This document shows positions 1 through 11,333 of a DNA stretch of 64,000 bases, in pieces (positions within the stretch are counted from its first letter, which is position 1; each line of letters begins with the position of its first letter). The notes under the pieces are model-generated. The model saw nothing but the letters and a program-made list of their open reading frames with translations, ran no database searches and was not told the origin of the DNA. Made by a program: the position numbers and the translations under genes. This DNA comes from an uncultured Gemmatimonadales bacterium (lineage in GTDB: Bacteria; Gemmatimonadota; Gemmatimonadetes; Gemmatimonadales; GWC2-71-9), in NCBI GenBank assembly GCA_963817715.1, contig CAWFPG010000004.1:327673-391672 (forward strand). The letters are read 5' to 3'.

Positions 1-2502
1 ATTGCCTACCGGACCGTCGCCGACAAGATGCCGTGGGATGCCGGGCGTCGTGCCGACGTCGACGCCGAGCAGGCGGTCATCCAGGCGCGCCTGGCCGAGT
101 TCCCGCTGGCGCGGACGCGGCCCTACTTCGATGCCCACGAGTCGAAGCAGAAGGGGACCGGCGGGCTGCTGTCGGTGACGGTCAACCCCGAGGCGTGCAA
201 GGGCTGCAACCTGTGCGTGGAGGTCTGTCCCGACGGTGCGCTGGTGACGGTGCACCAGGACCAGGACAACCTCGCCCGGCTGCGCCGCAACTGGTCGATG
301 TGGAACCACCTGCCGGACACCGACGACCGATTCGTCACGATCCACGACATCGACGAGGGGATCGGCGTGCTGCCGACCCTGCTCCTGAAGAAGGAGGCCT
401 ATCGGTCGATGGTGGGTGGCGACGGCGCCTGCATGGGCTGCGGCGAGAAGACGGCGGTGCACCTGATCGTCTCGGCGATCCACGCCCAGATGGCCCCGCG
501 AGTGCGGCGCCACGTGGCCGATCTCGATGCGCTCATCACCACCCTCGACGGCAAGGCTCGTGAGCTGCTGGCTCGGCACGCCGACCTCGACGAGGCCGCC
601 GCCGCCGACACCAGCGTGGCGGTCCCGGTCGACGACGAGGCCCATCGCGAGCTGGCGGCGCTGACCGAGTCGCTGCGGGAGCTGCGCGACCTGCGGTGGC
701 GCTACACCGAGGGACCGAGCGGCAAGGGCCGGGCGCTGATGGCGATGGCCAACTCCACCGGCTGTTCGTCGGTGTGGGGCAGCACCTATCCGTACAACCC
801 GTATCCGTTCCCCTGGGTGAACCACCTCTTCCAGGATGCGCCCTCGATCGCCATCGGGGTCTTCGAGGCCCAGATGCGCAAGATGGCCGACGGCTTCCTG
901 GCGGTGCGCCGGGCCCGGGCCATGGCCGAGGGGCGCGCGGTGAACGGACCGGCCCCGGGCGAGCACGACTCACTCGACTGGCACGAGTTCACCGATGAGG
1001 AGTTTGCGCTCTGCCCGCCGATGGTGGCGATGGGCGGCGACGGGGCGATGCTCGACATCGGCTTCCAGAACCTCTCGCGGCTGCTTGCCTCGGGGAAGCC
1101 GATCCGCGTGGTGGTGCTCGATACCCAGGTCTACTCCAACACTGGCGGACAGGCCTGCACCAGTGGCTACACCGGTCAGGTCGCCGACATGTCGGCGTTC
1201 GGCAAGGCCCAGTCGGGCAAGACCGAGGTGCGGAAGGAACTCGGCCTGCTGGCGATCGCCCACCGCGGGGTGTTCGTGCACCAGTCGTCGCAGGCGGCCG
1301 CGTCGCACATGCTGGCCGGGGTGCTGCAGGGTCTCGGCAAGCGTCGGCCGGCGGTCTTCAACATCTACACGCCGTGCCCGGTGGAGCACGGCCTCGCCGA
1401 CGACTGGTCCCAGCACGCGGCCCGGCTGTCGCTCGAGAGCCGCGCGTTCCCGTTCCTGACCTACGACCCGGACGGCGGGAGCACCATCGCGGATTGTCTC
1501 TCGCTCGAGGGTAACCCGTCGATCGAGAGTGATTGGCCGGAGTACTCGCTCACCTACGTCAACGATGATGGGGTCGAGCAGGTGATGACCCTGCCGCTGA
1601 CGATCGCCGACTGGGCCGCCACCGAGGCACGCTTCAAGCCGCAATTCAGCGACGTCCCTCGCGACGACTGGCACGACGACATGGTGCCGTTCCACGAGTA
1701 CCTGGCGCTGGCACCGGAGGATCGCGCGGGGAAGGAGCCGTTCATCCACGGTGTCACCGCGGACCGCCGCCTGCGGCGGCTCCGGGTGTCGCTGACGATC
1801 GTTGGGCTCGCGCGGGAACGACTGGAGTTCTGGTCCCAGCTCCGGCAACTCGCCGGGGTCGAGGTGGGCGACAGCGTCCGCGAGGCCGTCTCGCGCGACC
1901 TCGACGACGACTACGCCAAGCGCGAGGCAGCGCTGCGGGCCGAGTTCGAGACCAACCTGGCCGCGATGCGGGCCAGCTATCCGCGGCAGATTGCCCGGCG
2001 GTTGGTGGAGAGTCTGGTGAAGCAGGGTGGCGGGGCGGCAATCGCCGAGCTGCTCACCTCGATCCCGGGAGTGGCCGCGGCCGCTGCCGCTGGCAACGGT
2101 GCCGCGGTGGCGGAACCCGAGCCGGCAACCGTCACGGCGACTGCCGCGCCACCGGCGACTCCGACTCCGCCGCCTGAGCCGGCACCCGAACCGACCGCGA
2201 CCGCCGCTGCCCCGGCCGCGGCGACCGACGACGACGATGACGATGACGGCCTCGAGATGGAGGCGTACATCGACACGATCCGCTGCACGACGTGCAACGA
2301 GTGCACCAACCTGAACAACCGGATGTTCGCCTACAACGACGACAAGCAGGCCTACATCAAGGACCCGACGGCGGGGACCTTTCAGCAACTGGTGCTGGCC
2401 GCCGAACGCTGCCCGGTGTCGTTGATCCACCCCGGGACGCCGCTCAATCCGAAGGAGAAGGACCTCGAGAAGTGGGTCAAGCGGGCGGAGCGCTTCGCCT
2501 GA
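1..2502 (+). CDS. pyruvate:ferredoxin oxidoreductase-type 2-oxoacid oxidoreductase, 5'-truncated by the window edge, with an extra C-terminal linker and ferredoxin-like domain
   Basis: The frame of ORF 28..2502 is open from nt 1. Motifs seen: CKGCNLCVEVCP (4Fe-4S), GDGACMGCGEKT and GGDGAMLDIGFQN...YSNTGGQ (TPP domain), NSTGCSSVWG. The tail has an Ala/Pro-rich linker, a D7 run and CTTCNEC...CP. Confidence 0.85.
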   Translation: MAYRTVADKMPWDAGRRADVDAEQAVIQARLAEFPLARTRPYFDAHESKQKGTGGLLSVTVNPEACKGCNLCVEVCPDGALVTVHQDQDNLARLRRNWSMWNHLPDTDDRFVTIHDIDEGIGVLPTLLLKKEAYRSMVGGDGACMGCGEKTAVHLIVSAIHAQMAPRVRRHVADLDALITTLDGKARELLARHADLDEAAAADTSVAVPVDDEAHRELAALTESLRELRDLRWRYTEGPSGKGRALMAMANSTGCSSVWGSTYPYNPYPFPWVNHLFQDAPSIAIGVFEAQMRKMADGFLAVRRARAMAEGRAVNGPAPGEHDSLDWHEFTDEEFALCPPMVAMGGDGAMLDIGFQNLSRLLASGKPIRVVVLDTQVYSNTGGQACTSGYTGQVADMSAFGKAQSGKTEVRKELGLLAIAHRGVFVHQSSQAAASHMLAGVLQGLGKRRPAVFNIYTPCPVEHGLADDWSQHAARLSLESRAFPFLTYDPDGGSTIADCLSLEGNPSIESDWPEYSLTYVNDDGVEQVMTLPLTIADWAATEARFKPQFSDVPRDDWHDDMVPFHEYLALAPEDRAGKEPFIHGVTADRRLRRLRVSLTIVGLARERLEFWSQLRQLAGVEVGDSVREAVSRDLDDDYAKREAALRAEFETNLAAMRASYPRQIARRLVESLVKQGGGAAIAELLTSIPGVAAAAAAGNGAAVAEPEPATVTATAAPPATPTPPPEPAPEPTATAAAPAAATDDDDDDDGLEMEAYIDTIRCTTCNECTNLNNRMFAYNDDKQAYIKDPTAGTFQQLVLAAERCPVSLIHPGTPLNPKEKDLEKWVKRAERFA

Positions 2503-3824
2503 TGCGGACCGGCAAGGGGTTCCGTCATGGGGTGCATCCTCCGGAGGCCAAGGCGCTCACCAACCAGCTGCCGATCCGACGAATGCCGTACCCCGAGGAG
2601 CTGGTGCTGCCACTGCGGCAACACGCCGGCGCGCCAGCCACGCTCTGCGTCAGGGTCGGCGACCGGGTGGAGCGCGGTGACAAGGTGGGCGAGGCCGACG
2701 GCTACATCTCGGTGCCGATTCATGCCTCGGCCGCCGGCATCGTCGCCGGGGTCGAGTTGGCCCCCCATCCCGACGGCTCGATGGCGATGGCGGTGCGGAT
2801 TGCGGTCGATCCCTACGCGCCCCAGGTCCCGAGGCCCCGACTGGTGCCCCGGTGGGAGGGGCTCAGCGCCGACGAGGTGGTCGCCGCGGTGCGCGATGCC
2901 GGTGTGGTGGGAATGGGCGGTGCCGGCTTCCCGACCCACGTGAAGCTGGCGCCACCCAAGGACCAGCCCGTGCACACCTTGATCATCAATGGTGCCGAGT
3001 GCGAGCCGTACCTGACCTCGGATCACCGGACCATGGTGGAGTATCCCGAGCGGGTGCACTTCGGCATCCGGGTGATGATGCAGACGCTCGGTGTGGAGCG
3101 GGTGGTGATCGGGATCGAGCGCAACAAGCCCGATGCGGTGGCGGCACTCGAGCGGACCATGCCGGACGACCTCGACGTCACCATCCTGCCCCTCACCGTC
3201 AAGTATCCGCAGGGCGCCGAGAAGATGCTCATCCACGCGGTCACCGGGGTCGAGGTGGGCTCGGGCAAGCTGCCGGTCACCGCCGGGGTCGTGGTGCAGA
3301 ATGTCGGTTCCGCCGCCGCGATCGCCGAGGTGTTCGAGACCGGCTTGCCGCTGATCGAACGGATCGTGACGGTCACCGGCCACGGCCTGCGCAAGCCCGC
3401 CAACCTGATCGTGCCGGTGGGCACCCGACTGCGTGATCTCTTTGCCTACTGCGGCGGGCTCACCGCCGATGCCGCCGAGGTCGTGGCGGGCGGACCGATG
3501 ATGGGACTGGCACAGGCCAACCTCGACGTGCCGATCACCAAGGGCACCACCGGGGTGGTCGTGCTCGCGCGCGATGAGACCCGCGGCGAACAGGTCTACC
3601 CCTGCATTCACTGTGGCCGCTGCCTGGACTCCTGTCCGGTCTTCCTCAACCCATCGCTGCTCGGTGACCTGGCCCGGGTGGGCCGCTACGAGGCGATGGC
3701 CGAGGCGCACCTCGCCGACTGCATGCTCTGCGGCTCCTGTTCCTACGTCTGTCCCTCGAACATCCCGCTGTCGCAGCTCTTCCAGGTCGGCAAGGTGGCG
3801 CTCCGGCGGCAGCGGGCGGCATGA
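2502..3824 (+). CDS. rnfC: Rnf electron transport complex subunit C
   Basis: The ATG overlaps the PFOR stop (TGATG at 2500-2504). 441 aa with GMGGAGFPT and two ferredoxin motifs, CIHCGRCLDSCP and CMLCGSCSYVCP. Confidence 0.9.
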   Translation: MRTGKGFRHGVHPPEAKALTNQLPIRRMPYPEELVLPLRQHAGAPATLCVRVGDRVERGDKVGEADGYISVPIHASAAGIVAGVELAPHPDGSMAMAVRIAVDPYAPQVPRPRLVPRWEGLSADEVVAAVRDAGVVGMGGAGFPTHVKLAPPKDQPVHTLIINGAECEPYLTSDHRTMVEYPERVHFGIRVMMQTLGVERVVIGIERNKPDAVAALERTMPDDLDVTILPLTVKYPQGAEKMLIHAVTGVEVGSGKLPVTAGVVVQNVGSAAAIAEVFETGLPLIERIVTVTGHGLRKPANLIVPVGTRLRDLFAYCGGLTADAAEVVAGGPMMGLAQANLDVPITKGTTGVVVLARDETRGEQVYPCIHCGRCLDSCPVFLNPSLLGDLARVGRYEAMAEAHLADCMLCGSCSYVCPSNIPLSQLFQVGKVALRRQRAA

Positions 3825-4822
3825 CCATGACGACCCCTCCGCTGATCGTCACCGCATCGCCGCACCTCAAGGCACCCGACTCGACCCCGCGGATCATGTG
3901 GCACGTGGTCCTGAGCCTTGTGCCAGTGGTCGCCGTGGCGGGCTGGTTCTTCGGGGTGAGTGCCCTGCTGGTGATTGCCGCGGCCACGCTCGGGGCGCTG
4001 TTGGCCGAGCGCCTCTTCGGGCAGGGCGGCACCATCGCCGACGGGTCGGCGGTGATCACCGGGTTGTTGCTGGGGCTCTGCCTGCCGGCCGGGATGCCGC
4101 TCTGGATGGCGATGCTGGGTGGACTGGTCGGCATCGGGATCGGCAAGATCGTCTTCGGCGGATTGGGGCAGAACGTCTTCAACCCGGCGCTCGTGGGTCG
4201 CGCGTTCCTGCAGGCAGCATTCCCGGTGGCGATCACCACCTGGCCCCAGCCGGGCCAGGGGTTCTGGACCCTGGCCGGCGACACCTTCGCGTTGCCGTTC
4301 ACCCACGGCGTGACCGACGCCATCACCGAGGCGACGCCGCTCGGCCTCTTCAAGTTCGAGGGGCGCCTCACACCGGTCCCCGATCTCTTCCTCGGGAACA
4401 CCGCCGGCTCGCTGGGCGAGACCGCCGTGGTGGTGATCCTGCTCGGTGGGCTCTACCTGGCGTGGCGCGGCTACCTCAACTGGCGGATCCCCGTGAGCGT
4501 GCTGGGCAGCACCGCGCTGCTCGCCGCGGTGCTCCACCTGATGAATGCGGCCTGGCCACCAGTGCCGTTCATGCTCCTCTCCGGCGGGTTGATGCTGGGC
4601 GCGGTGTACATGGCGACCGACATGGTCACCTCGCCGGTGACCAATGCCGGTCGCTGGGTGTTCGGGGCCGGGATCGGGGTGCTGGTGGTCGTGATCCGCA
4701 TCTGGGGTGGCCTCCCGGAGGGCGTGATGTACGCCATCCTGCTGATGAACGCGACGGTGCCGTTCATCGATCGCTTCACGCAACCGCGGGTCTTCGGGAC
4801 CGGGCGGAGGGTGCGGGCATGA
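3821..4822 (+). CDS. rnfD: Rnf complex subunit D (NqrB/RnfD family membrane protein)
   Basis: 333-aa polytopic membrane protein with ATGA overlaps on both sides. DAITEATPLG resembles the RnfD/NqrB flavinylation region. The position after rnfC fits. Confidence 0.85.
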   Translation: MTMTTPPLIVTASPHLKAPDSTPRIMWHVVLSLVPVVAVAGWFFGVSALLVIAAATLGALLAERLFGQGGTIADGSAVITGLLLGLCLPAGMPLWMAMLGGLVGIGIGKIVFGGLGQNVFNPALVGRAFLQAAFPVAITTWPQPGQGFWTLAGDTFALPFTHGVTDAITEATPLGLFKFEGRLTPVPDLFLGNTAGSLGETAVVVILLGGLYLAWRGYLNWRIPVSVLGSTALLAAVLHLMNAAWPPVPFMLLSGGLMLGAVYMATDMVTSPVTNAGRWVFGAGIGVLVVVIRIWGGLPEGVMYAILLMNATVPFIDRFTQPRVFGTGRRVRA

Positions 4823-5481
4823 CGGGCCACGCGCATGGCGGGCCACCGCCGACCGAAACGCCGCCCAAGGTCTCCTCGTGGCGACTGCTGGCCACCCTGG
4901 GAATCGCCGGGGCGCTGGCCGGCGGGCTGATCGTGACCGTCTACGCCCGCACCCTGCCGACCATCGAGGCGCACCGCGCCGCCCTGGTCGAGGCGGCGGT
5001 CCGCGAGGTGCTCAAGGAGCCGGCACGCCTCGACACCCTCTATCTCGTCGATGGGGCGCTGGTCGACGCCCTCCCCGATGGCACCGATCCGCGGGGGCTC
5101 GAGCGCGCCTTCCTCGGCTATGACGCCGATGGGGCGATGGTCGGCGCGGCGGTGACCGCCGCCGAGCCAGGCTTTTCCGACGTGATCTCGCTGATCTTCG
5201 GAATCGAGCCCCGCGACGGCACCCTGCTGGGCATGAAGATTCTCGCCCACAAGGAGACGCCGGGACTCGGCGACAAGATCGATCGGCCGGCGTTCATGGG
5301 CGAATTCGCCGGGGTCCACGCGCCGCTCGAGGGAGTGAAGGGCAGCCCTGCGACGCCCAACCAGGTGCAGACGATCACCGGCGCCACCATCTCGTCGCGC
5401 GCGGTGATCCGGATCATCAACAATGCCACGCAGCGGTGGCAGCCGCTGTTGCAGGCGTACCTGCAGGGAGGCGCCCCATGA
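4819..5481 (+). CDS. rnfG: Rnf complex subunit G (FMN-binding)
   Basis: The internal ATG at 4819 overlaps the rnfD stop. It has an N-terminal TM helix and an FMN-binding domain with the TGATISSRAV flavinylation motif. Confidence 0.85.
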   Translation: MTGHAHGGPPPTETPPKVSSWRLLATLGIAGALAGGLIVTVYARTLPTIEAHRAALVEAAVREVLKEPARLDTLYLVDGALVDALPDGTDPRGLERAFLGYDADGAMVGAAVTAAEPGFSDVISLIFGIEPRDGTLLGMKILAHKETPGLGDKIDRPAFMGEFAGVHAPLEGVKGSPATPNQVQTITGATISSRAVIRIINNATQRWQPLLQAYLQGGAP

Positions 5482-6116
5482 CCGCCGCGGCGCAGCCGGC
5501 GACCTTCGACGACTTCCTCCGGGGCGTCTGGCGCGAGAACCCGGTGGTGGTGCAGATGCTGGGACTCTGTCCCACCCTGGCCGTGACCAACAGCGTGGCC
5601 AACGGCCTCGCCATGGCGGGGGCGACAGCCTTCGTGCTGCTCGGGTCGAACGTGCTCGTGGCCTCGCTCAAGAAGCTGATCCCGCACGAGGTGCGGATCA
5701 CCTCCTATGTGCTGATCATCGCGACGTTCGTGACGATCGCCGACATGCTGCTCGAGGCGACGGTGCCGACCGTGCACAAGCAGCTGGGACCATTCGTGGC
5801 GCTGATCGTCGTCAATTGCATGATTCTCGGTCGTGCCGAGGCCTTCGCGTCGCGCAACGGCGTGGTGCGCTCCGCGATCGACGCGCTGGGCACGGCCGCC
5901 GGCTTCACGGTGATCCTGGTGCTGATGAGCGCGGTGCGCGAACTGCTCGGCACCGGCGCGCTGCTGGGCGTTGACATCCTCGGTCCGCACTTCGAGCCGT
6001 GGGTGATCATGGTGCTCCCGCCGGGCGGCTTCCTGACGCTCGGTGCGCTGATGCTGGTGCTCGGGTGGCTGGCCACGCGACGGCGTCGGTCCGTCGGGGC
6101 GGGGGAGGCGGCATGA
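5478..6116 (+). CDS. rnfE: Rnf complex subunit E
   Basis: The ATG at 5478 overlaps the rnfG stop. Typical RnfE/NqrD sequence (NPVVVQMLGLCPTLAVT..., LIVVNCMILGRAEAF). Confidence 0.85.
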   Translation: MTAAAQPATFDDFLRGVWRENPVVVQMLGLCPTLAVTNSVANGLAMAGATAFVLLGSNVLVASLKKLIPHEVRITSYVLIIATFVTIADMLLEATVPTVHKQLGPFVALIVVNCMILGRAEAFASRNGVVRSAIDALGTAAGFTVILVLMSAVRELLGTGALLGVDILGPHFEPWVIMVLPPGGFLTLGALMLVLGWLATRRRRSVGAGEAA

Positions 6117-6688
6117 AGGACCTCTCCTGGATCCTGATCTCGGCGCTGCTGGTCAACAACTTCACGCTGACCCTGTTCCTCGGGCTCTGCCCGTTCTTCG
6201 GGGTCACCGGTCAGGTGTCGACGGCGTTGCGCCTCGGCGTGGCCAACATCTTCGTGATGGTGATCACCGCGCTCGCGGTCTGGCTGCTCAACGCCTACGT
6301 GCTGGTGGCGGCGCCGTTCCTGCGCATCATCGCGTTCATCGTGGTGATCGCCTCGCTGGTGCAGATCGTCGAGATGGCGATCAAGAAGATCTCGCCGGCG
6401 CTCTTCCGGGCGCTGGGGATCTACCTGCCGCTGATCACCACCAACTGTGCCATCCTGGGGTTGGCGATCTTCCAGACCAACCGCGGCTACACCCTGCTCG
6501 AGGGCCTGGCCTTCGCGCTGGGCGCCGGGCTGGGCCTCACCCTCGCGCTGGTGCTGATGGCCTCGATCCGGGAGCGCACCGAGCTGGCCGAGATCCCCGG
6601 TGCCGCCAGGGGATTCGGGCTCACGCTGATGATCGCCACCTGCCTGTCGCTCGCCTTCATGGGCTTCGCGGGGTTGGGGGCCGGATGA
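6113..6688 (+). CDS. rnfA: Rnf complex subunit A
   Basis: The ATG at 6113 overlaps the rnfE stop. Typical RnfA/NqrE sequence (LLVNNFTLTLFLGLCPFFGV, LPLITTNCAILG). Confidence 0.85.
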   Translation: MKDLSWILISALLVNNFTLTLFLGLCPFFGVTGQVSTALRLGVANIFVMVITALAVWLLNAYVLVAAPFLRIIAFIVVIASLVQIVEMAIKKISPALFRALGIYLPLITTNCAILGLAIFQTNRGYTLLEGLAFALGAGLGLTLALVLMASIRERTELAEIPGAARGFGLTLMIATCLSLAFMGFAGLGAG

Positions 6689-6828
6689 TCACCACGGCGA
6701 TCGGGATCGGCGCCGTCGCGCTGCTGTTCGTGATCTACGGAATCGTGGGCGGCCGCGGCTGCACCGGACACTGTCCCGGATGCGGCAGCGCGTGTGCCAC
6801 GTACAAGGAGGAGACTCGTGTCGGTTGA
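6685..6828 (+). CDS. small Cys-rich single-TM protein (47 aa), not in the ORF track; NqrM-like or FeoB-associated-Cys-rich-like
   Basis: The ATG at 6685 overlaps the rnfA stop (ATGA). My translation is MITTAIGIGAVALLFVIYGIVGGRGCTGHCPGCGSACATYKEETRVG, a hydrophobic helix followed by a five-Cys cluster. It lies between rnfA and apbE. Confidence 0.45.
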   Translation: MITTAIGIGAVALLFVIYGIVGGRGCTGHCPGCGSACATYKEETRVG

Positions 6829-7813
6829 TGAACGCCTGGGCCCCAGCTGGGATCGGCGCCGCTTCGTCGGGGTCGGGATCGGCCTCTTCGTGCTTGCGGG
6901 GCTGCCGCTGGCCGCCCTGCGCCGCCGCCTCATGGTGCGCCGCTCAATGCCGGTGATGGGCACCATGGCCGAGCTCACCGTGGTGCATCACGACACGCCC
7001 CTGGCCGAACGCGCGATCGACGCTGCGTTCGACGTGCTGCGGCGCGTCGAGCGGCAGATGACCCGGTTCAGCGACGGCTCGGATATCGGCCGGGCCAACC
7101 TCGCGGCCGGCCGCGAGGGCGTCGCGGTGGCCCCGGCAACCGCGACCGTGCTGGCCCGGGCGCTCGAGTGGGCCTCGGCCAGCGACGGGCGCTTCGATCC
7201 CGCCCTCGGCTCGGTCATCGAGCTGTGGGATGTGGCCGACCGACACCAGCCTCCACCGGCAGGAGCGGTGCAACCGCTCGCCGGTCGTCAGTTCTGGCGC
7301 CACGTCGACCTCGCTCGTGGTCCCCGCTCGACCGCGGTCCGGTTCACCGACCCGGGCGTGCGCCTGGATCTCGGCGGGATCGCCAAGGGGCATGGCGTGG
7401 ACCTCGCCGTGAGGGCGCTCCGCGAGGCCGGCGTGACCGACGCGATCGTCAACGTCGGTGGTGACCTCTACGCGCTGGGCGAGGCCCCCGACGGTGGCCC
7501 CTGGTCGGTCGGGATCCGCTCGCCGCACCAGGCCGATATCATGGCGGCGACGCTGAAGATCAGCGACCGCGCCGTCGCGACATCGGGCGATTATGCCCAG
7601 TTCTTCACCTGGCACGGACACCGCTATCACCACCTGATGGACCCCACCACCGCGGTGCCCCGTGGTGGTCCGCTGCACAGCGTGACGGTGCAGGCCGACC
7701 AGTGCATGGATGCCGATGCGGCGGCCACCGCCACGTTCGGATTGCCACAGGGCGAGGCCGAGCGACTGGTCCGGTCGCTGGTGTCGCGCGCCGAGGTATT
7801 GCCCCTGGCCTGA
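6818..7813 (+). CDS. apbE: FAD:protein FMN transferase ApbE (flavin transferase), Tat-like signal
   Basis: LDLGGIAKGHGVD and ATSGDY motifs. The GTG at 6818 is preceded by AAGGAGG (6805-6811). The N-terminus RRRFVGVGIGLFVLAG looks twin-arginine. The ORF track's alternative start is 6794. Confidence 0.85.
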   Translation: MSVDERLGPSWDRRRFVGVGIGLFVLAGLPLAALRRRLMVRRSMPVMGTMAELTVVHHDTPLAERAIDAAFDVLRRVERQMTRFSDGSDIGRANLAAGREGVAVAPATATVLARALEWASASDGRFDPALGSVIELWDVADRHQPPPAGAVQPLAGRQFWRHVDLARGPRSTAVRFTDPGVRLDLGGIAKGHGVDLAVRALREAGVTDAIVNVGGDLYALGEAPDGGPWSVGIRSPHQADIMAATLKISDRAVATSGDYAQFFTWHGHRYHHLMDPTTAVPRGGPLHSVTVQADQCMDADAAATATFGLPQGEAERLVRSLVSRAEVLPLA

Positions 7814-7849
7814 ACACGACAGGCCTGACGTTCTGACCCGGAGGGACCG

Positions 7850-8200
7850 ATGAAAGGCACCAAGGTCTACTGTTCCGCCTGTGACCGGCAGGTGCGCGTG
7901 ATGATCTCCGAGGCGCCGGCCCACAACGGCCAGGCGACCCTGCACGACGAGGAGGTCGTCTGCCTCGAGATTGGCGACGAGTGCACCGGGGCGATGTGCC
8001 CGATCGGTGCGGCAGCTCCCGGCTCGATGGTGGCCCGTCTGGTGCGGCTCGGCCTTCCCACCGAGGGCCTGCGAACCGTGACCGCGACCTGCCCGACCTG
8101 TGAAGCCGAGGCCGAGATGGTGCTCTATGGCGGCGGCAAGGCGGCCTGTTCGGTCTGCGGGACCTCGGCGCGCTGGGTGGCTGATCACATGGAGGCGTGA
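7850..8200 (+). CDS. hypothetical Cys-rich (zinc-ribbon-like) protein
   Basis: 116-aa ORF with CSAC, CPTC and CSVC pairs plus [14 protein letters not shown] do not recognise a family. Confidence 0.5.
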
Positions 8201-8340
8201 GCGGGCCGAGGCACGGGGCACGCGCGAGGCGGCTGCGCCAGCCCCCTCGCCCCTTTCCGCAACTGTCGCTCCGGCTTACCTTTCCGTGTCTATGCACCAA
8301 CCGCCCCCTCGCCGGGGGCTCGAGAGGGGTGATTCACGGA

Positions 8341-8532
8341 ATGTCGGAAGTCATCATCCACGATGACGAGAGCTTCGAGCGGGCACTCAAGCGCTTCAAG
8401 AAGAAGTGCGAGAAGGCGGGCATCCTTTCTGACCTTCGCAAGCATCGGCACTACGAAAAGCCGAGCGAGAAGAAGAAGCGGAAGATGAACGCGGCCCAGC
8501 GGAAGAACCGTCGTGGACGTTCCCGTGCCTGA
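8341..8532 (+). CDS. rpsU: 30S ribosomal protein S21
   Basis: The internal ATG at 8341 gives [48 protein letters not shown], which is typical of S21. Confidence 0.95.
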
Positions 8533-8965
8533 GCTCCTCGCCAGGCTGCGCAGCGACCAGGTCGCCGCACGCAAGGCTGTTGACAAGGACCGGACCCTGC
8601 TGCTGGGGACGGTCCTTGCCGCATTGAAGAACCGCGAGCTCGAAGTGTCGCGCGACCTCACCGAGGACGAGGTCGTCGAGGTGCTTCGCAAGCAGATCAA
8701 GCAGCGACAGGATTCGGTCGAGCAGTACACCAAGGCCGATCGTCCCGACCTCGCCGGGCGGGAGCAGGCCGAGCTCGACGCGCTGCGGCACTACCTTCCG
8801 CCCGAGGCCGATCCGGCCGAGATCCGGGCCGCGGCCGAGGCCGCCGTCGCCGCCGGGGCGAGTGATCTTGGCAAGCTGATGGGGCGCCTGATGGGCCAGT
8901 TCAAGGGCAAGGCCGACGGCAGGACCGTCAACCGGATCGCCCGCGAGACGCTCGGCCAGGGATGA
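8513..8965 (+). CDS. GatB/YqeY domain-containing protein
   Basis: 150 aa with a YqeY-like sequence (LKNRELEV...[17 protein letters not shown]...[17 protein letters not shown]). The start is uncertain (GTG at 8513 or 8525). Confidence 0.8.
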
Positions 8966-11333
8966 CCGCCGACGGACAGGCGGCGGCGCTCGCTTCGCTC
9001 GAGTTCGCTGCCGTCCTCGAGGTTGTCGCCGGCCGTGCGGCGGGCGAGGTCGCCGCGGCCCGGCTCCGGGCACTCTGCCCCGGCACTGATCCCCACGCCA
9101 TCACCACCGAACTCGATCGCGTCGCCGAGGTGCTCACGTTGCACCGGCGGGGCGAACGGCTCGACGTGCCCCCCGTGCCGGCGCTCCGTGGTGCACTGGC
9201 CCGACTCCGGGTCGAGGGGAGCGTGCTCGAGCTGGGGGAACTGGCCGATGTCCGCCACAGCCTTGCTGCCGGTCGGGTGATCGCCACCGAGCTGGAACGC
9301 ATCGCGGAGGCGGCTCCTCGACTCGCCGAGCTGCGGGTGCCGCCCATCGCCACCACGATCACCCGCGACCTCGATCGCGCGATCGACGACGATGGCGAGC
9401 TGCTCGACGGGGCATCGCCCGCGCTGGCCGCTGCCCGCCGGGAGGTGCACGCATCGCGTGAGCGGCTCATCAAGCGACTCGAGACGATTCTCAGGGACCT
9501 CGATGCCGCCGGGGCAGGTGCGGTCACGATGCGAGGCGGTCGCTACGTGATCCCGGTCCGCCGCGATGCGCGCCATCGCCCCGACGGGATCATCCACGAT
9601 GAGTCCGGCTCGGCGGGCACGCTGTTCATCGAGCCGACCGCGGCGATTCCGCTCGGCAATGCGCTCCGGGCGGCGATCATTGCCGAAGAGCGCGAGGTGC
9701 TCGCGGTGCTCCGCGCGCTCACCGAGGCGCTGCGACCCGAACGCGAGGCGATCGTCGCACTGCACGAGATGAGTGTGTCGGTTGACACCATCGTCGCGCG
9801 CGCCGCATGGGCGTTCGACTGCGGTGCCGAGCGACCGGAACTGACCGGCCCGGGTGGTGCCCTCGCGCTGCGCGACGCGCGGCACCCGCTGCTGCTCGCC
9901 CGCGGCGTCGACGTGGTGCCGTTCACGCTGGTGCTGGAGCCGGATGAGCGCACCCTGCTGATCTCGGGGCCCAACACCGGTGGCAAGACCGTGCTGCTCA
10001 AGACCGTGGCGCTGGCGCTGCTGCTCACCGCCAGCGGGGTGATTCCGCCGCTGGGAGCCGAATCGGCGGTGCCGTTGGTCGATCTGGTCTTCGTGGACAT
10101 CGGCGATCACCAGTCGCTGCAGGCCGACCTGTCGACCTTCTCGGCCCACGTGGCCGAGTTGCGCCGGATCCTCGACGGCGCCGATCGGACCTCGTTGGTG
10201 ATCCTCGACGAGATCGGCAGCGGCACCGATCCGGCGGAGGGCGGCGCCCTGGCAATGGCGGTGCTCGAGGAGCTCACCCGGCGCGGGGTGCTCACGATCG
10301 CCACCACCCATCTCGGCGCGCTCAAGACCCTCGCCACCGCGGTCCCCGGGGTCGTCAACGGGTCGCTGCAGTTCGACGCGGCGACGCTCTCGCCGACCTA
10401 CCGCTTCACCAAGGGGATTCCGGGTCGCTCCTACGGGATCGCGATCGCCCGGCGTCTCGGCGTGTCAGCGGCGGTGCTCGACGCTGCCGAGGCACTGGTG
10501 CCCGAGGCCGAGCGCGAACTCGACCGGTTGCTGGCCAGCGTGGAGTCGCGGGAACAGGAGCTGCGACACGACGAGCACCGAGCTGATCGAGCGGACGGTC
10601 GACGTCGATCGCCGCGAGGCCGTCGTCGCCTCCCATGAGGCCTCACAGCGGGCCCGTGAGGCCGAACTCCGCCGCGCGGAGAAGGAAGCCGAGCGGGAGC
10701 GGGCCAAGCAGGCCCGGGCCTACCTGCTCGAGGCCCGCCGTCGGGTGGAGGACGCCCTGGCCCTGGCCAAGGGGGCGGCCGACGAGGCGGCGGCCCGGGA
10801 GGCGCGCCGGTTGGTGGAAGAGGGCATCCGGGCCGAAGGCGACGTACTCGACGACGACACGGTGGAGCAGGTGGCCCAGCCCGGTCAGCTGGCGGTCGGG
10901 GATCGGGTCCGGCTCTCCACCGGGGCGGCCGGCGAGGTTGCCGAGCTCCGGGGCGACGGCCGCGTCGTGGTGCAGGTCGGGCGCCATGCGGCTGGTGGTG
11001 AAGGCAACGGCGGTCACCCGACTGGCGCCGCGGGAGGCCGCGCCGGTGGTCCGGCCGACCCCGCGACTCCCCGACGAACCGGCCCGCGAGGCCGCCTGGG
11101 AGATCGACCTGCGCGGGATGCGCGCCGACGAGGCGGAGACGGTGGTGCTGGCGGCCCTCGACGGGGCGGTGCTGGCGGAGCAGCCGCATCTGCGCATCAT
11201 TCATGGCATGGGTACCGGGGTGCTTCGGGAGGTGGTCCGCGAGCTGCTGGGTGGCGACCGGCGGGTCGCGTCGTTCGACTTTGCGCCGCGTCAGCAGGGT
11301 GGCACCGGCGTGACGATCGCGGTGCTGGCCTGA
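8962..11333 (+). pseudogene. mutS2: endonuclease MutS2 (MutS ATPase plus Smr domain), interrupted by two apparent +1 frameshifts as given
   Basis: The N-terminal and ATPase part is in the frame of 8962 (GPNTGGKT, ILDEIGSGTDP). The coiled-coil/KOW part is in the frame of 10745. The Smr domain (EIDLRGMRADEA...IIHGMGTGVLR) is in the frame of 10635..11333. The span is 2372 nt, i.e. 3n+2. Confidence 0.8.

Follow-up and report, generated by a model that had tools for sequence, protein, structure and literature searches.

The left edge of a 64,000-nucleotide stretch of DNA from an uncultured Gemmatimonadales bacterium (lineage Bacteria; Gemmatimonadota; Gemmatimonadetes; Gemmatimonadales; GWC2-71-9; assembly GCA_963817715.1, contig CAWFPG010000004.1, positions 327,673 to 391,672 of the forward strand; hereafter the window) cuts into a gene for a pyruvate:ferredoxin oxidoreductase (PFOR)-type protein that carries a ferredoxin-like domain at its C-terminus; the gene is flanked by rnfB and rnfC in a complete rnf operon. 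Based on the observed gene content, stop-start couplings, conservation, co-occurrence with Rnf and intact cofactor motifs, we propose that the tailed PFOR with its tethered ferredoxin would act as a built-in shuttle from PFOR to the RnfB subunit of a complete Rnf complex. We put the probability of this explanation as a whole at roughly 0.6, including the assignment of the C-terminal domain as a monocluster [4Fe-4S] ferredoxin tethered by a disordered Ala/Pro linker about 60 residues long. The tether would probably take the place of a diffusible ferredoxin and not that of RnfB.

The operon has the order korA-korB-X-rnfB-PFOR::Fd-rnfC-D-G-E-A-(47-aa Cys peptide)-apbE, where Fd stands for the fused ferredoxin, and is tightly coupled. 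The part upstream of the window was read on a 15-kb stretch of the same contig (L007; G000 denotes this genome and G000:C4 the contig holding the window), where the stops and starts of korA, korB, X and rnfB overlap or nearly touch. The rnfB gene (280 aa) occupies L007 8264-9106 on the same strand, which corresponds to 3410 to 2568 nt ahead of window position 1. It starts with GTG at 8264 behind a GAGG ribosome-binding site, and its TGA stop (9104-9106) overlaps the PFOR ATG at L007 9103 (ATGA). The product has an N-terminal membrane helix, the CGACGLPGC 'FeS' motif (PF04060) and several 4Fe-4S motifs. It scores 59.6 against a cut-off of 68.7 on TIGR01944, yet matches RnfB of Acetobacterium woodii over its full length (9ERI_B, residues 3-260, E 6e-58), and it also aligns with RnfB of Clostridium tetanomorphum (7ZC6_B, residues 4-264, E 1e-45).

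The first-pass annotation of the window had described this rnf operon as lacking rnfB and suggested that the ferredoxin tail may stand in for the missing subunit. Its statement that nt 1-8200 hold no RnfB-like gene is true for that interval, in which the sole TIGR01944 match is the dicluster domain of the PFOR. The rnfB gene was not seen because the window begins inside the PFOR gene that parts rnfB from rnfC. A whole-genome search with the RnfB model finds it 3.4 kb ahead of the window, on the contig and strand of the PFOR gene and directly 5′ of it, so the operon does not lack rnfB. Substitution of RnfB by the tail is refuted, as a canonical rnfB adjoins the PFOR gene here and in all related loci that extend to this position. 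Thus the operon is complete, and Rnf systems of this type should not be scored as being without RnfB. All six Rnf subunits are encoded, RnfC, RnfD and RnfE scoring above their TIGR cut-offs and RnfA and RnfG just below. Profile searches confirm the rnfC-D-G-E-A cluster that had been read downstream of the PFOR gene, with apbE following, and direct reading bears out the overlap of the PFOR stop with the rnfC start. Described contiguous rnf gene orders are rnfABCDGE, rnfCDGEAB and rnfBCDGEA. None of them is matched here, where a 5.1-kb PFOR gene stands between rnfB and rnfC, an arrangement that is kept in relatives.

The full PFOR-type gene (G000:C4:325102-330174; L007 9103-14175) starts 2571 nt before the window and encodes 1690 aa. 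Its Pfam domains follow one another as POR_N (residues 42-265), PFOR_II (305-387), POR (502-695), Fer4 (~775-940), TPP_enzyme_C (1197-1278) and then Fer4_13, and thus include the domain order of single-chain PFORs of the NifJ type (pyrimidine-binding domain, domains II and III, dicluster ferredoxin domain, and the domain binding thiamine pyrophosphate, TPP). The protein aligns with the PFORs of Desulfovibrio africanus (1B0P/7PLM, E about 1e-91 to 6e-91) and Moorella thermoacetica (6CIN, E about 1e-87). This alignment delimits the extension beyond the PFOR core that the first-pass annotation had noticed, and adds two inserts of ~80-90 aa; inserts and C-terminal extension together account for the length of the protein compared to these references. 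On TIGR02176, the NifJ equivalog model, it reaches 409.4 bits. As this is far below the cut-off of 911.35, we regard the protein as a member of a divergent long subfamily, call it PFOR-type and take pyruvate as its presumed substrate only.

The cofactor-binding motifs are in place. In addition to the CxxCxxCxxxCP motif listed in Table 1, the other motif of this kind, CTGCAQCWVQCP, is present and aligns with 6CIN and 7PLM, and the sequences NSTGCSSVWG and YTPCPVEHG align with the remaining proximal-cluster ligand motifs of 6CIN. The TPP motif reads GGDGAMLDIG...VLDTQVYSNTGGQ in full (in short form GDG...YSNTGGQ). With this motif and the ligands of three [4Fe-4S] clusters intact, the PFOR looks functional. 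An AlphaFold2 model of the last 345 aa comprises a confidently predicted beta-rich and long-helix region, then ~80 unstructured residues and finally a small domain of low confidence. The helices span model residues 110-129, 136-186 and 190-199, with predicted local distance difference test (pLDDT) values mostly of 86-98 that fall to 63-74 over the last 20 residues of the helical extension.

The linker between this extension and the ferredoxin domain consists of an Ala/Pro/Thr-rich stretch from ~2071 to 2226 and seven Asp codons at 2227-2247. It is predicted to be disordered, with a pLDDT below 50 across model residues 203-283. Its length, measured in 29 of 61 homologues, ranges from 42 to 68 aa with a median of 57, and its composition is 36% Ala and 17% Pro. 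The tail itself reads EAYIDTIRCTTCNEC...ERCP and continues to a conserved IHPGTPLNPKEKDLEKWVKRAERFA end, with CTTCNEC at 2284-2304 and the distal CP at 2410-2415. Helical segment, linker, Asp run and cysteine motif are all as the first-pass annotation had described them. A family search of the C-terminal end identifies the domain as Fer4_13 ('4Fe-4S single cluster domain of ferredoxin I'), matched by residues 757-810 of the fragment encoded in the window with an E of 1.2e-8; the score is 35.9 bits for the fragment and 30.1 bits for the full protein, both above the gathering cut-off of 24.5. The nearest solved relative of the tail profile is D. africanus ferredoxin I (1DAX/1FXR, E 2.7e-7), a protein of 64 residues with a single [4Fe-4S] cluster and a physiological acceptor of D. 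africanus PFOR. Here the domain is not the free-standing form of ~60 aa in which monocluster ferredoxins occur; it forms the C-terminal end of a larger protein behind a linker of ~60 aa. It is the sole Fer4_13 domain in this genome.

The tail is strongly conserved. All of the 111 full-length homologues have the motif CT[TS]C[ND]EC at the same distance from the C-terminus, exactly 72 residues, and the four cysteines are invariant. Across 61 aligned relatives the mean identity to this protein is 81% for the ferredoxin part compared to 26% for the linker and 51-56% for the neighbouring structured parts, i.e. the C-terminal region is most conserved in its ferredoxin tail and the linker can vary freely. 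Given the fixed motif position and the high identity of the ferredoxin relative to the linker, the tail is no chance feature.

To follow tail and Rnf through the phylum, 151 Gemmatimonadota genomes were searched for the tail, RnfB and RnfC. A strong tail match is found in 24 of them, each with a close rnfC (65-81% identity) that starts ~10-90 nt downstream. In 18 of the 24 a close rnfB shares contig and strand with the tail at a distance of ~5 kb upstream, and in the remaining six it falls on another, short contig. Among the 151, no genome of this class has a close RnfC without the tail. A natural control is provided by G136, a complete one-contig genome with a PFOR of the same clade and neither Rnf nor tail. 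Its PFOR (L089:7111-11613, G136:C1, minus strand) is 66% identical to the present one and ends right after the long helix, with no linker and no ferredoxin. The neighbours are unrelated genes, none of them rnf, and the genome gives no RnfB or RnfC match. Canonical PFORs of ~1200 aa in other Gemmatimonadota have no tail. A separate Gemmatimonadota family (f10, genomes G002-G032) has a divergent Rnf (RnfC 41-44% identity) and a canonical tail-less PFOR of ~1200 aa, and its rnfB lies far from rnfC or on a different contig.

In a scan with one genome per species the tail was found in at least 570 species. Gene order was checked in the best 80 of these species-level loci, and korA-korB-X-rnfB-PFOR-rnfC-D-G-E-A-apbE is kept in all 80, up to the contig ends; a few of these loci are in metagenome-assembled genomes (MAGs) labelled as other phyla, mostly on short contigs, and may reflect mis-binning or gene transfer. 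Gene X is present in 51 of 51 related loci that reach its position. Thus, the fusion of PFOR and ferredoxin does recur beside rnf in relatives, which the first-pass annotation had proposed to look for, but the rnf operons concerned have rnfB wherever the contig extends far enough.

The tail also extends beyond the phylum. An exhaustive search with an 88-residue tail query yielded 955 representative clusters at E <= 1e-10. Two of the long tailed PFORs from other phyla were looked up at the level of the locus, one in a Planctomycetota MAG and one in a Rokubacteria MAG, and both lie in an identical operon of korAB, a gene of ~330 aa, rnfB, tailed PFOR, rnfCDGEA and apbE. As a separate observation, the Rokubacteria operon is followed by a hemerythrin-domain gene and the Planctomycetota operon by a weak CBS-domain match (L172/L173, after apbE), and in a further locus (L090) a hemerythrin gene comes after rnfA; these neighbours may point to oxygen or redox sensing.

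The largest group of tail carriers comprises proteins that we call Y, mostly 700-900 residues long (up to 1245 aa), which end in the tail and have neither a TPP motif nor a match to any other Pfam family. They carry names such as 'hypothetical protein' or 'ferredoxin'. Their pre-tail region resembles the back half of PFOR, and we regard Y as a PFOR-derived, cofactor-less protein. The Y protein P0158, for example, shares 66% identity with the present PFOR over 79 residues of the tail, and its pre-tail region is homologous as well. The profile of X aligns with the middle part of Y (hhalign probability 99%, E 2.4e-18), which identifies X as a homologue and a truncated form of this tail-carrying protein. 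AlphaFold models X with confidence (pLDDT 87); a Foldseek search of the model against the PDB gave nothing significant, the best match being transketolase with E 0.098.

Three loci, one of them in a Rhodothermales MAG, have the order korAB-Y(tail)-rnfB-PFOR. In two of the three a complete tail-less PFOR of ~1500 aa is followed by rnfC onwards; the Rhodothermales PFOR is cut by the contig end. As the short X goes with a tailed PFOR and the long tailed Y with a tail-less PFOR, there is one tail per cluster, on either carrier. The neighbourhoods of Y were then surveyed in 80 metagenome loci with a flank of 10 kb each, a range within which the absence of rnf does not mean absence from the genome. 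Where there is room upstream, Y comes after korB in 49 of 57 loci; where there is room downstream, rnfB comes after Y in only ~8 of 60. Since adjacency to korAB is common and adjacency to rnf is rare, the tail is primarily a companion of 2-oxoacid:ferredoxin oxidoreductases, with Rnf as one context, and since it is common on Y without rnf in the flank, the module is not intrinsically Rnf-specific. The possibility that the motif is a common, RnfB-independent feature, which the first-pass annotation had named as an objection to its own idea, is thus partly borne out: it is common beside korAB mostly without rnf in the flank, although on Y as a different carrier.

Some of the tail matches are unusual. 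P0142 (1456 aa) joins a ferredoxin tail and then RnfC and RnfD domains in one frame, and is either a real fusion or a read-through of stop codons. P0125 (Riflebacteria) and P0133, of ~1570 aa, resemble PFOR and each gave two matches in the tail search, with two Fer4_13 stretches confirmed by Pfam only in P0133. P0126 (2733 aa, 26 'tail' stretches) was rejected as a tail carrier, being an SprB-repeat surface protein and a false positive.

For the electron path we propose the following steps. Electrons from pyruvate would pass from TPP through the three internal clusters of the PFOR to the tethered ferredoxin, which would swing over to RnfB, the polyferredoxin subunit. Rnf would then hand the electrons to NAD+ and export Na+ or H+. 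The same wire could also be run in reverse. RnfB is the most likely partner of the tail because the PFOR gene stands between rnfB and rnfC with overlaps on both sides, because tail and Rnf co-occur perfectly in the phylum and because the Rnf-less relative is tail-less. The contact between tail and RnfB, the direction of flow and any supercomplex are what we infer from this arrangement. KorAB with its partner X may feed the same shuttle, and the tail perhaps serves as a shuttle for KorAB too. A more ambitious reading, which we offer tentatively and would not favour on present evidence, is that KorAB-X, tailed PFOR and Rnf form one membrane-bound, ion-pumping 2-oxoacid:NAD+ oxidoreductase, or in reverse a gradient-driven 2-oxoacid synthase, with the tether as the only low-potential carrier; largely aerobic hosts would thereby keep a free reduced ferredoxin pool from oxygen.

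Several findings weigh against the proposed shuttle from PFOR to RnfB. AlphaFold2 models the ferredoxin domain itself with low confidence (pLDDT 45-63). A free 7Fe ferredoxin is encoded elsewhere in the genome, so that a soluble route exists. The genome also encodes the E1alpha subunit of pyruvate dehydrogenase (PDH) and the E1 subunit of 2-oxoglutarate dehydrogenase (OGDH); PFOR is therefore not needed for ordinary aerobic pyruvate oxidation, and electrons may flow in either direction. Finally, ~52 of the 60 metagenome Y loci with room downstream have no rnf gene in the flank, and with the tail mostly on Y beside korAB without rnf, Rnf is not its universal partner. The earlier suggestion that the tail may replace free ferredoxin and link pyruvate to Rnf gains comparative support from the co-occurrence within the phylum, the tail-less PFOR of G136 and the operons in other phyla, and we keep it as the best hypothesis.

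Among the alternatives, the same wire might be used in the opposite direction, with ion gradient and NADH reducing the tethered ferredoxin via Rnf and with PFOR and KorAB acting as pyruvate and 2-oxoglutarate synthases in anaplerotic or partly autotrophic CO2 assimilation. Rnf is run in reverse in Rhodobacter and Azotobacter. PDH E1alpha and OGDH E1 already cover the oxidative direction, so that what PFOR and KorAB uniquely add is reversibility, and both of these reversible 2-oxoacid enzymes are coupled to Rnf in the present cluster. The sole published mention of the gene order is moreover from a chemoautotrophic symbiont (PMC4287430). Against this reading, the genome offers no other obvious strong sink for ferredoxin. 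Nitrogenase was not found (no nifH match above cut-off), for which reason a nitrogen-fixation role of this Rnf was rejected, and ATP-citrate lyase is not demonstrable in a PF16114 search that gave no match in control genomes either. Nothing in the sequence sets the direction, and we consider this reading unlikely. The module might conserve energy as an alternative at low oxygen, or else let the ion gradient drive the formation of reduced ferredoxin and reductive carboxylation.

Less probable still is that the tail is a general private ferredoxin of KorAB- and PFOR-type enzymes that serves soluble acceptors (FNR, NfnAB or other reductases), with rnf adjacency as only one of several settings and the Rnf encoded here using free ferredoxin. 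The free 7Fe ferredoxin of this genome, the position of tailed Y after korAB with rnfB seldom next, and the predominance of carriers of 700-900 aa among the 955 tail clusters all speak in its favour. It is difficult to reconcile with the 151 Gemmatimonadota genomes, in which the tail is never found without an adjoining Rnf, with the loss of the tail in the Rnf-less G136, and with a PFOR gene that is placed between two rnf genes with stop-start overlaps on both sides.

We give little credence to a C-terminal domain that is structural, protective or a redox sensor and no electron carrier, for example an oxygen lid like domain VII of D. africanus PFOR, whose C-terminal extension protects its clusters. 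Such a role would suit a phylum of mostly aerobes. A disordered linker of ~60 residues and a complete four-cysteine ferredoxin fold argue for a mobile carrier, however, and the occurrence of the tail on a different carrier in other lineages fits a shuttle better than a lid. An Rnf without RnfB in which the PFOR tail substitutes is scarcely credible, since its one support, the lack of rnfB within nt 1-8200 of the window, is met by the rnfB directly upstream of PFOR that is kept there in all relatives reaching far enough.

The tethered shuttle can be compared with several known systems. Rnf is usually pictured with a diffusible ferredoxin pool in anaerobes, and the Gemmatimonadota are known mostly for aerobes. 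The chain of PFOR, free ferredoxin and Rnf in anaerobes (A. woodii Rnf, 9ERI; C. tetanomorphum Rnf, 7ZC6) has in common with the present operon all six Rnf subunits and ApbE, a long polyferredoxin RnfB, and a PFOR with TPP and three [4Fe-4S] clusters, and electron flow from 2-oxoacid via ferredoxin to NAD+ with ion translocation would be expected here too. It differs in that here the PFOR gene separates rnfB from rnfC, the ferredoxin is attached covalently to the PFOR, KorAB and X belong to the operon, and the host phylum is mainly aerobic with PDH and OGDH. Homodimeric PFORs (1B0P/7PLM, 6CIN) share the domain order and cofactor motifs and are ~1170-1230 aa long compared to 1690 aa here, where inserts, helical extension, linker and fused ferredoxin are added. 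In the pyruvate:NADP+ oxidoreductase (PNO) of Euglena and Cryptosporidium, a PFOR is fused C-terminally to its own electron-accepting module. The acceptor in PNO is a flavoprotein of the NADPH-cytochrome P450 reductase type and not a [4Fe-4S] ferredoxin, and the enzyme is eukaryotic with no link to Rnf. The KorAB-associated Y proteins have the homologous tail and pre-tail region and the same operon position as X, but the carrier is cofactor-less and not an active PFOR.

The closest precedent for the gene order is the rnf2 operon of the Solemya velum gill symbiont, rnfB2-PFOR-rnfC2DGEA, in which PFOR genes lie between rnfB2 and rnfC2 and for which pyruvate was suggested as a possible donor for that Rnf (Dmytrenko et al. 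2014, PMC4287430). That paper mentions the gene order in one sentence and is silent on a tether, korAB, X or Y, and conservation. In full-text searches on Rnf and PFOR in Gemmatimonadota and Rokubacteria and on rnf operons with PFOR or korAB, we found no description of the tether or of korAB-X-rnfB-PFOR-rnfCDGEA. Thus, the order rnfB-PFOR-rnfC is known from one mention in print (2014), and a description of the tether was not found.

Table 1. Features of the PFOR-rnf operon. Positions are those of the window unless a locus is named; bit scores are followed by the model cut-off.
Feature	Position	Strand	Basis or remark
Gene X, 335 aa, no Pfam family, between korB and rnfB	L007:7249-8256 (G000:C4:323248-324255)		upstream of window
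PFOR-type gene, 3′ part (833 codons)	1..2502	+	open from nt 1, TGA 2500-2502
Second CxxCxxCxxxCP motif CKGCNLCVEVCP, PFOR dicluster domain V	196..231	+	Fer4 match at fragment residues 59-81; aligned with M. thermoacetica PFOR
CMGC, two ligands of proximal [4Fe-4S] cluster, domain VI	430..441	+	GACMGCGEK vs GACAGCGE of 6CIN
TPP/Mg-binding motif GDG...VLDTQVYSNTGGQ, intact	1036..1151	+	aligned with VLDTEVYSNTGGQ of 6CIN; Pfam TPP_enzyme_C
Helical extension past canonical PFOR core, including helix of ~50 residues	1792..2061	+	AlphaFold2 model
Flexible Ala/Pro/Val/Thr-rich linker with terminal acidic patch	2071..2250	+	reading of sequence and AlphaFold2
Predicted tethered single-cluster [4Fe-4S] ferredoxin (CTTCNEC...CP) and conserved C-terminal helix IHPGTPLNPKEKDLEKWVKRAERFA	2251..2499	+	Fer4_13
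TGATG, PFOR stop overlapping rnfC start (ATG 2502-2504)	2500..2504	+	sequence reading
rnfC, 440 aa	2502..3824	+	TIGR01945 512.7 bits vs 246; Pfam RnfC_N, Complex1_51K, SLBB, 2x4Fe-4S
rnfD, 333 aa, ATGA overlap with rnfC	3821..4822	+	TIGR01946 324.6 bits vs 207
rnfG, 220 aa, ATGA overlap with rnfD	4819..5481	+	FMN_bind; TIGR01947 99.1 bits vs 102
rnfE, ATGA overlap with rnfG	5478..6116	+	TIGR01948 222.1 bits vs 213.4
rnfA, 191 aa, ATGA overlap with rnfE	6113..6688	+	TIGR01943 217.6 bits vs 229.3; Pfam Rnf-Nqr
47-aa single-helix Cys-rich open reading frame (GCTGHCPGCGSAC), ATGA overlap with rnfA, ends just inside apbE	6685..6828	+	no Pfam family
apbE (flavin transferase), probable GTG start 6818 behind AAGGAGGAG ribosome-binding site	6818..7813	+	Pfam ApbE E 1.1e-74

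At the 5′ end of the operon, korA (~635 aa, probable start MSMPDATAD...) and korB (317 aa) lie upstream of X. The probable korA start is preceded by a non-coding leader of ~570 nt (L007:3834-4401), in which an Rfam scan found nothing significant and no sigma-70-like promoter was seen, and a Rex box (TTGTGAA-N4-TTCACAA, <=3 mismatches) has no match in the 15-kb upstream locus. Scanning of the plus strand of the window from 1 to 9200 detected no sigma-70 promoter or intrinsic terminator, which is weakly consistent with a single transcript. At the other end, a Cys-rich open reading frame of 116 aa with several CxxC pairs follows 37 nt past apbE on the same strand (window 7850-8200), with only a sub-threshold match to Zn_ribbon_Brz (E 0.0077). 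Elsewhere in the genome, a gene for a [NiFe] hydrogenase large subunit is interrupted (G000:C19:39503-41057, minus strand): it occupies two frames and contains one in-frame TGA, for which an assembly error, a frameshift or selenocysteine could account.

Taken together, a PFOR with a leashed ferredoxin and a 2-oxoglutarate-type oxidoreductase are written into an Rnf operon in a mostly aerobic phylum. If the parts act together, pyruvate oxidation would conserve energy that pyruvate dehydrogenase dissipates, or CO2 would be fixed into 2-oxoacids at the expense of an ion gradient. The system would then also illustrate a safe way of channelling low-potential electrons in cells that are exposed to oxygen. 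The tail, which alternates between two carriers, the PFOR or its dead paralogue Y, provides a natural handle for experiments.

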